Virus record (IMG/VR): IMGVR_UViG_2778260993_000005
Length of the DNA: 10,323 bases
Strand: one strand, 5' to 3'
From: a virus
Taxonomy: Duplodnaviria; Heunggongvirae; Uroviricota; Caudoviricetes
Part shown: in pieces, positions 3,001-6,000 of the stretch
Layout of the letters: each line of letters starts with the position of its first letter
How positions within the stretch are numbered: the first letter of the stretch is position 1
Program-made: the position numbers

Positions 3001-6000
3001 GGTATCAGGTGGCAAGGTTGTGATCCCGAAAGCGATGATTTATGACGCGGTGATTGAAACACTGGTGTCGCGGAAGGTTGTGGCGGATGAGGTAAAAGCC
3101 GGGGTAAGTATCACTTCGCCAGTTATCCGGAGTGCCGTTATTCAGAACGGAAACTTTCAGGTTGATTCTCAGGGTAACCTGAATATTGGAGGCCTTTTCA
3201 GTGTTACGTCACAAGGGCAACTGACAATTCGTTACTCTAATCAGAATGTAGGACTGGTGATCCGCAATGATAAAATTGAGGTTTATGATCAGAATGGACG
3301 ACTGGCTGTTCGCATAGGCAGATTACGCTGATCAGGAGGTGAGTATTGGAATACGGTTTTGCCATTTATAACAGAAATAACGTTAATGTTACGGGCGTGC
3401 TGACTCCGGTATTTTTCCTGGACAGATTTACAGCGGAGTCTGGCTCAAAGACGTACACGAATAAACCCGACGGGAAATCATTGCAGGCTGTATGTTGTTT
3501 ATTTCCCTGGAATAACGTATTTGCGGATCGGAAAGTACCGAAGATAACCATTAATGGCAATACGGTGACGTGGTCGAATCTTGAGCAGGGTATGGGATCT
3601 TATATTTATACATTCTGGGGATAAGTGTCATGTATGGTTTGAGCATTATGAAGCCGGATGGCAGCGTATGGATAAGTCCAGGTTTTACGCCGCAGTGTCT
3701 GATCAACAAAGGCACCATACCGGCGACTGAAAAGTCTTTTTTTAAAACATCAATCCCGTCAGGCAAAAGTTGTTTTTTCTTTATCAGAACAGAGAAGAAG
3801 GCCGATGTCATGTACACGCATGAACAGATTGATGGATATCATGCACTAAGGCTTCATGTAATTGTCAGGGGAACGAACCCTGGTGTTACGACGGTTTATG
3901 CTTTCGCGAATATGGTTACTCCACCTTCTGAGTATGGTATCGCCATGTATAACCCGGACGGTGAGATGATTTATCATGGCGAAATGATGCTGCTTGACGC
4001 GAAGTTAATACCTGTTGATATCAAATTTGAAAAGGACCTTGGATATCCATGCGCAATCATGCCTGCACTGGTCGGGTATTATAACTGGAAAAGAACTCCT
4101 TATGATCGACCGATTTATACCACATCCACTGGTGCTACAGGAAATAAAATATATTCCTGTGAGCATTATTCCGGTGGTGCAACATGGGATATTCGAAAGC
4201 CGTATATAGATAAGGTCCTGGTTATTAATACATCAGTATATGATTAGTTGAAGCGAGTCTTTAATATTCATTTAAAATGTCTAAAAAGATGTATTATTAA
4301 AAAGTTTAGCGTGTTATCTGAATACAGGATATCTTAAATGAAGAGTATAGCAACACTGGTTGTGTGTGCAATCTCCGGGATTGCCTGTGTAAATTTATCT
4401 GCACATGCAGCAGAAGGAAACCATACAATTTCTCTGGGGTATGCGCACTTTCAGTTTCCGGGACTGAAGGATTTTGTAAAGGATGCGACTGCTCATAACA
4501 GGGAGACTTTCAGTCATTTCGTCAACAGAAACTACTTTTCTTCATTGAGCGAATATACAGATGGTCGGGTCAGTGGATATGAAGGCAAGGATAAAAATCC
4601 ACAGGGCATTAATATCAGGTATCGCTACGAGATAACGGATGATTTTGGCGTTATCACCTCTTTTACATGGACGCGTTCTCTCACTAACTCACAGACATTT
4701 ATTGATGTGCAGTCAGCCGATCATACCAGGAAGATTAAGAATCCGGCAGCTTCTGCCAGAACGGATATCAGGGCGAATTACTGGAGTCTGTTAGCGGGGC
4801 CTTCATGGCGGGTTAATCAGTACATGAGTTTATATGCGATGGCAGGGATGGGCGTTGCTAAAGTTAGCGCTGACCTGAAAATTAAGGACAATATTAACAG
4901 TAGTGGCGGATTTTCTGAAAGCAACAGCACGAAAAAAACCTCCCTTGCGTGGGCTGCAGGTGCACAGTTTAACCTGAATGAGAGTGTTACACTGGATGTG
5001 GCTTACGAAGGTTCCGGCTCTGGCGACTGGCGCACGAGTGGCGTTACTGCTGGCATTGGCCTGAAATTCTGACCTGTATCCGGTAACCGTTTACTACCCG
5101 CTGTGATGGCGGGTTTTTTATTGCCCGTACAGGGCAAAAACCGTAAATTATGCGTGGGTGCCTTTCGGCTGATGGCTGGAGGGAGAACCTGAAGGCCTGA
5201 TGTGGAAAGGCCCCGAGTCAACTTAACGTTAACCCGAGGCCCTAATCATCATACCTTAAGCAAGTAGAAGGTTAGCGCCTCTCTGTAAAAGGAGTCAAGC
5301 GCTATGTCGCAAAAATCGCTTATCACCGTCACAATTTGTATGACGGTTATCTTCACTATCTGGATGTTGCACGGTTCGCTGTGTGAGTTCCGGCTGAATT
5401 TGTGGGGAGCGGAGTTTGCGGCGTTCTTACAGTGTAAGCAGTAGGAAAACCGCGACGGGGACGAAAGTCCCCGTCAACTGGTTGCTGAGGTTCAGCCGAT
5501 ATGGCACCCGTTTGTAGTGTATGTTTTATACAATGCAGGCTGACAGAGAGAGGTAATATTTATCAATGGTAAATAATAACCACAGAAAATGTTTTGTTTT
5601 TTCTGAGTAATACTGGTGTTATTTAGGGTAAGTTTTTGATGCGTATTGCATTCTTGTGATTTTAATCATTAATTTTTCTTAACCCATTGATTTTGATATT
5701 TTATTTGCCTTGTTATTATGAGTAGTATCCCTGAAGACATTTGCGTTCCGAATGTCAACATATTTATAACATGATTTAACATAAGGGTACACATCATGAA
5801 AAAGGCAAGCAAGCTATTGTTGGCTTTAATACCAGCATTAAGCCTGTCGGTATTTTCTGCTGGCGTATATGCAGCAGACGCCTCTGGAATTAATGGCACT
5901 TCATATTATGGAGTGACTGTTGATCAGTTGAAAGGACATGAATATAAAAATTTAATTGATTTTTGGAAAGACCTCGGCTTCTCAGGAAAAGCATATCTGG

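Follow-up and report, generated by a model that had tools for sequence, protein, structure and literature searches.

A probable hok/sok-type toxin-antitoxin cassette of Shiga toxin-converting phages at the site of the small RNA 24B_1

What does the interval between the lom and adhesin genes of a Shiga toxin (Stx)-converting phage encode, and how does 24B_1, published as a phage microRNA, relate to it? The question arises from a 10,323-nt stretch of DNA from a virus of the Caudoviricetes (IMG/VR virus record IMGVR_UViG_2778260993_000005; hereafter the window, meaning this stretch at its full length), in which an initial annotation had proposed an overlooked hok-like type I toxin gene. In our assessment the locus is quite probably a hok/sok-type type I toxin-antitoxin cassette carried by Stx-converting phages as an accessory gene, with an antisense RNA that is the source of 24B_1 and with a leader that controls toxin synthesis without coupling to an overlapping mok reading frame.

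At the protein level the locus is defined by an open reading frame (ORF) of 46 codons, which was missing from an ORF list drawn up with a minimum of 60 amino acids (aa). Its translation has a hydrophobic stretch at residues 6-22 together with the motifs SLCEFR and EFAAF, the hallmarks on which its assignment to the Hok/Gef family had been based, and profile searches bear that assignment out: the peptide matches Pfam PF01848 HOK_GEF over residues 8-44 with 33.2 bits, above the gathering cutoff of 22 (E 4e-8), matches PHROG 251 with 85.8 bits, and is identical to RefSeq WP_000078907.1, named 'Hok/Gef family protein'. Judged by these matches, the 46-codon ORF is a genuine Hok/Gef peptide gene and a member of a well-known family. 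To call the locus unannotated is correct as regards the original records of 933W, VT2-Sakai and phi24B, where no feature is annotated between lom and the following gene, and incorrect as regards RefSeq; in some records the ORF carries a 'MokW-like' label. We assembled 58 distinct related units, with their diversity drawn from a scan of viral contigs, and aligned the 55 full-length ones. Ten distinct coding sequences (CDS) for the identical peptide differ at 10 synonymous sites and at 0 nonsynonymous ones, and comparison of lineages that lack an overlapping mok gives dN/dS values of 0.19-0.39. By these values the Hok peptide is under purifying selection, which argues against a dead gene; RNA-structure constraint within the CDS could contribute to the signal.

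The RNA predicted around this ORF is organized by the pairing of its two ends. A plausible promoter that places +1 at the start of the 5' arm had been pointed out before, and the candidate G5156 indeed lies 7 nt past the -10 element of a promoter (Table 1) whose hexamers are kept as TTGCCs and TAnATT in relatives from unrelated contexts (next to ogr, plasmid-borne or within an O157 island). The generic sigma-70 scan, with its threshold of 9 of 12 consensus positions, listed no promoter on either strand, and the hok promoter was passed over because only 8/12 positions match; our promoter calls rest instead on the hexamers being kept in different contexts and on the resemblance by descent to the sokW promoter discussed below. 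The minimum free energy (MFE) structure of 5156-5510 (-152.9 kcal/mol, z -6.75) contains the end-to-end duplex, which in the ensemble holds 0.89 of the pairing mass of the 5' arm. This substantiates the duplex that had been read from the sequence, with one amendment: the arms are not exactly complementary, as first stated, since a 2x3 internal loop separates a perfect 7-bp block from a perfect 8-bp one. When the whole window is searched on both strands, the only partner of the 5' arm that beats 5489-5510 is the arm's own reverse complement, and the arm duplex at 5489-5510 reaches -30.3 kcal/mol vs. a mean of -9.24 (sd 3.35) over 20,602 windows of 22 nt. The end-to-end pairing is far beyond chance, 6 sd past background. 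The GAAA-tetraloop hairpin noted after the stop codon is likewise present, with a perfect stem, and was also scored as terminator-like on the minus strand in the terminator scan.

Comparative data are consistent with this architecture. The RNAalifold consensus of the 55 relatives recovers both the end-to-end duplex and the 3' hairpin; among 51 distinct sequences, 99.6% of cells are paired in the duplex vs. 33-54% in slid controls, and in the 3' hairpin compensatory changes affect 4/9 pairs with 100% of cells paired. A covariance-model search, suggested at the outset, gave a mixed outcome, in that RF01794, the only relevant Rfam match, aligns full length to 5156-5317 on the plus strand and starts exactly at 5156 (E 2.3e-5) with a score, 36.4 bits, that is short of the gathering threshold of 59. 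Homology with 933W and with all paralogs stops at 5510-5513, which supports ~5510 as the end of the unit. Removal of the 3' arm in silico leads the 5' arm to take 5200-5216 as its new partner, which accounts for 0.66-0.70 of its pairing mass. The unpaired probability of the upstream ATG, taken from the partition function, then rises from 0.01 in the full-length RNA to 0.60, that of the antisense-tail target from 0.31 to 0.45, and that of the hok Shine-Dalgarno (SD) sequence from 0.32 to 0.46-0.49.

On the opposite strand the initial annotation had found no confident sok, citing an antisense TTGACT at 5294-5299 with a poor -10 element. The hexamer lies at 5298->5293 and, with an 18-nt spacer, the -10 element reads TAACCT, the same hexamer as in sokW, the antitoxin RNA gene of the hokW-sokW locus. 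The sokW promoter of VT2-Sakai reads TTGCCT-17-TAACCT, with the annotated sokW RNA beginning 7 nt downstream, and Takada et al. abolished antitoxin activity by changing its -10 element from TAACCT to GAGCCG (primers YO-421 and YO-422; PMC8621323). At the corresponding position TTGnnn-17/18-TAAyCT is found in 55/55 relatives; in position and sequence, the antisense promoter is homologous to that of sokW, which has been validated functionally. The minimal RNA that it would transcribe has a fold z of -4.5 vs. -1.7 for the sense strand of this segment, the values in all being -4.5 to -6.5 vs. about -1.8, and the antisense strand is far more stable than the sense strand in 38/38 distinct variants (e.g., -41.0 vs. 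-22.5 kcal/mol), an asymmetry that arises because G.U pairs on the minus strand correspond to A.C mismatches on the plus strand. In single-sequence folds the hairpin apex is swapped wholesale between types with pairing kept; RNAalifold of the antisense alignment returns no more than the invariant lower stem, the upper stems being in different registers. A promoter, a 5' tail and a strand-asymmetric hairpin together are, at the level of prediction, the Sok design.

It is at this antisense hairpin that the locus meets the published RNA. 24B_1 was described as a 20-nt RNA, TAACGTTAAGTTGACTCGGG, recovered with 2,223 reads when a phi24B lysogen was sampled 80 min into mitomycin C induction and placed 'between lom and vb_24B_43' (PMC4426718). 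It has a single match in the window, with 0 mismatches, and none in 200 shuffles; the '80-nt precursor of 24B_1' corresponds to 5260->5181, differing from the window at 2 positions and at none from phi24B, whose counterpart of the hok locus is 98.8% identical to the window locus; and the published p24B_1 boxes (TTGACT and CGCTAACCT; PMC4426718) are the boxes of the sok-type promoter. We read 24B_1 as a fragment of the cis-antisense antitoxin RNA of the hok locus, most likely released by cleavage, either of the antitoxin itself or of its duplex with the mRNA. RNase III cutting within the isolated hairpin was considered as its source and rejected: in the 59-nt form the ends follow U31 and G51 and do not show the 2-nt stagger, so that cleavage of an intermolecular duplex or exonucleolytic trimming seems more likely. 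The suspicion that sok was lacking and that regulation had decayed is not borne out, the loss of mok excepted, in view of a sokW-type antisense promoter, a strand asymmetry common to all variants, a sequenced RNA from this very hairpin and a peptide under purifying selection.

The reagents behind the 24B_1 studies coincide with the same unit (Table 1). The delta-24B_1 deletion starts within the lom terminator, whose 3' half it takes away, and extends through the hok promoter, +1 and the whole leader, the antisense -10 element and most of the hok SD, with the hok CDS left in place. The complementing, 'overproducing' plasmid, as defined by the 2015 primers, holds the first 57 nt of vb_24B_43 in addition to the hok unit; the 2023 paper describes the pUC18_24B_1 insert as 'the 189-nt region' (PMC10732415). 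The deletion phage showed lower host survival and faster lytic development, complemented by the 565-bp clone, and Hfq was found to bind an 81-nt form of 24B_1 with a Kd of 25 nM. The studies of 24B_1 take it to resemble a microRNA and to regulate d_ant and sdhB in trans (PMC4426718, PMC10732415). Published, too, is a lower ATP level in cells carrying the clone or the prophage. As we analyze them, and by analogy with hokW in Sp5, the delta-24B_1 and ATP phenotypes are what Hok deregulation could produce. Hok toxins collapse membrane potential and ATP. Because the reagents all delete or supply hok elements, they cannot separate toxin effects from RNA effects. It is possible, if short of probable, that the 24B_1 phenotypes as a set (lysogenization, induction speed, burst, host survival and ATP) are due wholly or largely to Hok deregulation, with 24B_1 a Sok-type fragment and the locus mok-independent.

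What remains of mok is a stub. The GAAGG-N4-ATG element (5191-5202) is conserved in nearly all relatives, and in 7/58 variants the frame that it opens runs for 61-79 codons, overlaps hok and has the same relative frame as R1 mok; elsewhere it ends after 8-24 codons and does not overlap (51/58), and loci with an identical Hok peptide have mok frames of 8, 15, 22 or 61 codons. In the window the stop of the stub lies 63 nt before the hok SD. That no intact overlapping mok is present had been stated at the outset and stands after every frame with any start codon was checked, the rare starts CTG, ATT, ATC and ATA included: none spans the hok start. With mok reduced to eight codons, the classical mok-hok coupling cannot operate and other control is required.

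Table 1. Features of the hok locus and of the published 24B_1 reagents (window coordinates)
Feature	Position	Strand	Details
Intrinsic terminator of lom	5096..5114	+	From terminator scan; 8-bp stem, then TTTTTTATT; 3' half lost in the published delta-24B_1 deletion (5105-5292)
hok promoter (putative)	5121..5149	+	-35 TTGCCC 5121-5126, 17-nt spacer, -10 TAAATT 5144-5149; read from sequence
hok mRNA unit, ~355 nt (predicted)	5156..5510	+	Candidate +1 G5156; probable 3' end just past the 3' arm
5' arm (tac-like)	5156..5172	+	GGGTGCC/TT/TCGGCTGA; partner is the 3' arm at full length, 5204-5214 after 3' truncation; nearly invariant among relatives
mok remnant, 8 codons, MWKGPEST	5191..5226	+	SD GAAGG 5191-5195, ATG 5200, stop TAA 5224-5226
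Sok-type antisense RNA, minimal form (predicted)	5204..5261	-	Start ~G5261, 19-nt single-stranded tail, 16-bp hairpin 5243->5207, UUUCC
24B_1 20-mer	5212..5231 (5231->5212)	-	Exact 20/20 match; spans the loop of the antisense hairpin and its 3' side
Antisense promoter (published 'p24B_1')	5269..5298	-	-35 TTGACT 5298->5293 over the hok SD, 18-nt spacer, -10 TAACCT 5274->5269
hok SD, AAGGAG	5289..5294	+	From sequence; can pair with CUCU 5279-5284 (MFE structure)
hok CDS, 46 aa and stop	5304..5444	+	Peptide MSQKSLITVTICMTVIFTIWMLHGSLCEFRLNLWGAEFAAFLQCKQ
3' stem-loop, GAAA loop	5454..5475	+	5454-5462/5467-5475, 9 bp, perfect; begins 9 nt past the stop
3' arm (fbi-like)	5492..5509	+	TCAGCCGA/TAT/GGCACCC; variation at paired positions G-C<->G-U and U-A<->U-G only
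delta-24B_1 deletion	5105-5292 (phi24B 45585-45772)		Leaves the hok CDS
pUC18_24B1 insert (complementing, 'overproducing')	from 4993, past the hok unit to 5513 (phi24B 45473-46037)		565 bp; entire hok unit

We propose that a weak promoter (5121-5149) would give rise to an hok mRNA of ~355 nt (5156-5510) that is locked at full length through the pairing of its ends, with the upstream ATG 99% paired. Slow 3' trimming, by analogy with R1 hok, would strip the 3' arm, upon which the 5' arm would move to 5200-5216 and the leader would open to expose the start of the upstream ORF and the antisense target. The antisense promoter (5298->5269), presumably constitutive, would produce a short Sok-type RNA running from ~5261 leftwards to ~5204-5181; this RNA would pair with the leader at 5204-5261 in a duplex presumably cut by RNase III, and would block synthesis of the 46-aa membrane toxin, probably aided by Hfq and RNase III. 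Repression may proceed via mRNA cleavage or refolding, or via a standby or upstream-ORF effect, and this step is the weakest link of the account. As to timing, Q-antiterminated late transcription could, on induction, pass the lom terminator and flood the cell with sense RNA, the excess of which would titrate the antitoxin and make fragments late, an idea in keeping with 24B_1 having been detected at 80 min only. In the proposed role the cassette would tune the killing of the host, the time of lysis and the balance between lysis and lysogeny; the published phenotypes of the neighboring hokW locus and of the delta-24B_1 mutant (PMC8621323 and the 24B_1 papers) point to control of the phage's own lysis timing and lysis-lysogeny balance.

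Units of this kind are widespread. Related hok units are present in 1,673/5,426 complete E. coli genomes, with up to 8 per genome, in 198 phage records and in 308 IMG/VR viral contigs; other sites include the position after ogr at the ends of P2-like prophages, a plasmid and the O157 island, and the family seems to favor prophage ends and accessory-gene slots. In two P2-like prophages a 46-aa hok unit (2200-2791 and 2196-2788, respectively) stands right after an ogr/Delta-like gene, beside tRNA genes or serS. A scan of one genome per species yielded 6 loci, several under implausible organism names: contigs labeled as Xanthomonas pisi, as a Planococcaceae metagenome-assembled genome and as a Vagococcus sp. 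carry E. coli-type hok units with 82-92% identity, and these three units are probably contamination of the assemblies. Conserved throughout the family are the hok promoter hexamers, the 5' arm, the upstream SD-ATG, the antisense -10 element, the hok SD and the peptide, and three patches are highly variable, namely the leader-hairpin apex (5219-5231), 5243-5262 and 5281-5292. The antisense tail target (5243-5262) and the apex vary most, even with an identical Hok peptide. Such patches would fit diversification of antitoxin specificity in genomes with up to 8 copies.

Several points weigh against reading the locus as a working hok/sok cassette. An overlapping mok, a defining part of the R1 mechanism, is absent here, and hok would have to be translated by another route. 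That the 46-aa peptide is produced and toxic is an expectation drawn from its family membership. The RF01794 match is under its gathering threshold, and the end helix shows wobble-only changes and lacks double-sided covariation because its 5' arm is invariant. Neither the sense nor the antisense RNA has a canonical intrinsic terminator, so that the 3' ends given here for both are predicted ones. No reverse transcription PCR product was obtained from the 24B_1 region in uninduced lysogens (PMC4426718), which is unexpected for a constitutive antitoxin; that assay used random hexamers, so that it was strand-blind, and a small-RNA preparation (PMC4426718). The viability of the delta-24B_1 phage is uninformative because the control elements of toxin and antitoxin were lost together.

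These points feed chiefly into a competing explanation that we regard as unlikely, in which the locus is a silent toxin remnant: hok would be untranslated after truncation of mok, and the antisense RNA would have been exapted as a trans regulator of d_ant, of the region upstream of S or of sdhB mRNA, the job that its discoverers propose for it. It draws on a mok frame cut to 8 codons here and non-overlapping in 51/58 variants, on published trans effects on phage gene expression (PMC4426718, PMC10732415), and on in vitro pairing of the 20-mer with sdhB mRNA, which is weak, with <10% bound at 100 nM. However, the Hok peptide is under purifying selection in exactly the mok-less lineages, and a dead gene would have no need for the observed conservation of the hok promoter, arms, SD and 3' hairpin; the reagents used to assign the trans function, moreover, all delete or supply hok elements and do not separate the two explanations.

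An improbable variant, well behind the silent remnant, keeps the cassette intact and makes defense or addiction its main role, be it abortive infection, phage exclusion or the killing of prophage-free cells. The available phenotypes, those of delta-24B_1 and of hokW-sokW in Sp5, concern the phage's own development instead; what speaks for such a role is the precedent of R1 hok/sok vs. T4, cited in PMC8621323, the restriction of the family to mobile elements (Stx phages, P2-like prophage ends, a plasmid and an island) and the occurrence of up to 8 copies per genome with diverged recognition regions. Finally, the ORF is short and both promoters fall under a generic consensus scan, as expected of a chance ORF with chance complementarity and no function, but the peptide lies above the PF01848 cutoff, the arm pairing is 6 sd past background, the 3' hairpin covaries, and conservation extends through the family, in 1,673/5,426 complete E. 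coli genomes and 308 viral contigs, such that this last explanation is effectively refuted.

The phage that carries the probable hok/sok cassette is of the 933W/VT2-Sakai/phi24B type: the region is 100% identical to prophages of several Shiga toxin-producing E. coli genomes and to phage phiSTEC1589-Stx1c, and shares 98-99% identity with the short-tailed Stx-converting phages phi24B, 933W and VT2-Sakai (Sp5). Flanking the unit are an Ail/Lom barrel gene (4338-5072, 113 bits) and a YadA-like adhesin gene (5796-7007), in agreement with the placement between lom and adhesin genes proposed before. Several product names given to this region in the phiSTEC1589-Stx1c record (PQ600364.1) look wrong: 'virulence determinant Bor' for lom, 'terminase large subunit' for the YadA-like gene, and 'portal protein' and 'N4-family major capsid protein' for small ORFs downstream. 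A small inverted repeat, TTATTGCCC / GGGCAAAAA at 5118-5140, overlaps the hok -35 element and could belong to the lom terminator region or be an operator. On the other side, a 1,596-bp block (5514-7109) that is missing from 933W carries the YadA-like gene, preceded within the block by a 30%-GC stretch (5514-5795), and ends at the L0129/vb_24B_43 homolog (7119-7496); because the block begins 4 nt past the hok 3' arm, the 3' boundary of hok is a recombination junction. A strong terminator-like hairpin (AAAGACGCCTGCTTT...AAAGCAGGCGTTTT) at 7187-7222, inside ORF 7119-7496 (PHROG 610), accounts for sub-threshold Rfam matches to RsaE, BSnc120 and GlmZ; apart from RF01794, the sub-threshold Rfam matches in the window (these three and sX5) are terminator hairpins.

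As a kind of system the locus is ordinary, another mobile-element hok/sok with a peptide already named by RefSeq. What would be new is that its antitoxin RNA is 24B_1, published as a phage microRNA since 2015, and that Stx phages have two hok loci; because the functional study of hokW-sokW deleted only one of the two, redundancy may have masked part of its effect. RNA, promoter, deletion and plasmid all coincide with a toxin-antitoxin cassette, which offers a simple alternative to the 'phage microRNA' account, and, if true, what has been presented as the first functional microRNA-like phage RNA would be a breakdown or processing fragment of an antitoxin. The words hok, sok and toxin-antitoxin are absent from both 24B_1 papers (PMC4426718, PMC10732415) and from a 2025 review, and a 2017 mini-review by the same group treats Hok/Sok and 24B_1 in separate sections, unconnected. 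In the literature that we covered, which is incomplete, no paper linking 24B_1 to hok, sok or an antitoxin was found, and such a link may stand elsewhere; our literature search likewise returned no earlier description of the lom-adjacent hok. Most of the 46-aa Hok subfamily is mok-less, yet the peptide is kept under selection, which makes it a natural system for mok-independent hok control. Because these phages carry Shiga toxin, shifts in lysis timing or in the lysis-lysogeny balance bear on toxin release.

Set beside known systems, the locus resembles plasmid R1 hok/sok, as described in the Gerdes-lab literature and summarized in PMC8621323 and PMC5488031, in its small Hok/Gef membrane peptide, in an mRNA of ~350-400 nt with tac-fbi pairing of its ends, in the predicted alternative 5' stem once the 3' arm is lost, in a stem-loop past the stop codon, and in a short cis-antisense RNA made up of a 5' tail and one hairpin, with a promoter that overlaps the hok ribosome-binding region. 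It departs from R1 in that the peptide has 46 aa vs. 52, the locus is phage-borne vs. plasmid-borne, and RF01794 scores 36.4 bits vs. a threshold of 59; the 8-codon stub, moreover, starts 5' of the antisense-hairpin complement, outside the antisense-tail target, and there is no overlapping mok. The best-scoring named subfamily is hokA (NCBIfam NF007290), with which the peptide shares MxQK..., a W at the helix end, SLCE and AAFLxCK. Orthology with K-12 hokA was nonetheless rejected, at 38.4 bits vs. a cutoff of 89 and with no detectable similarity of leader and 3' region. K-12 hokA itself is interrupted by IS150, and mokA and sokA are annotated as pseudogenes.

The second system for comparison, hokW-sokW (Takada et al. 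2021, PMC8621323), encodes a 51-aa HokW (MKQQKAM...DYESEK) behind a leader starting GGGTGCTTGAGGCTATCTGCC, as its primers define them, and sokW depends in part on Hfq and RNase III for its activity (PMC8621323). Identity of the two loci was considered and rejected: the hokW leader is not in the window and lies ~13 kb away in phage records. In AP000422.1 (VT2-Sakai), hokW, mokW and sokW are found at ~60.1 kb on the minus strand and the lom-adjacent hok at ~47.0 kb on the plus strand; HokW and the window peptide are 37% identical over 35 residues, and predicted cross-duplexes with the hokW leader reach -42 and -56 kcal/mol vs. -119 and -141 kcal/mol for the cognate ones. Position, peptide and leader all differ, so that two distinct hok loci are present in these phages. 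MokW as annotated in VT2-Sakai (AP000422.1 59815-60027) is an in-frame N-terminal extension of HokW (MLNTCRLASYVPKGKEKQA followed by HokW) and not an out-of-frame overlapping ORF, unlike R1 mok. The loci have in common the same phages, the same family, the -10 hexamer TAACCT, a similar -35 element, the same antisense design and a link to Hfq, the binding of 24B_1 by Hfq paralleling the partial Hfq dependence of sokW (PMC8621323), and both could be released on prophage induction. They differ in locus, peptide, leader and the annotated mokW of hokW-sokW, a system that has been tested experimentally, whereas the window locus is known from sequence. With 24B_1 of phi24B, by contrast, the locus shares the DNA itself, the 20-mer, its precursor and p24B_1 all lying on the antisense strand of the hok leader; what differs is the reading, a trans-acting regulator in the 24B_1 papers and here, quite probably, a piece of a cis-antisense antitoxin.

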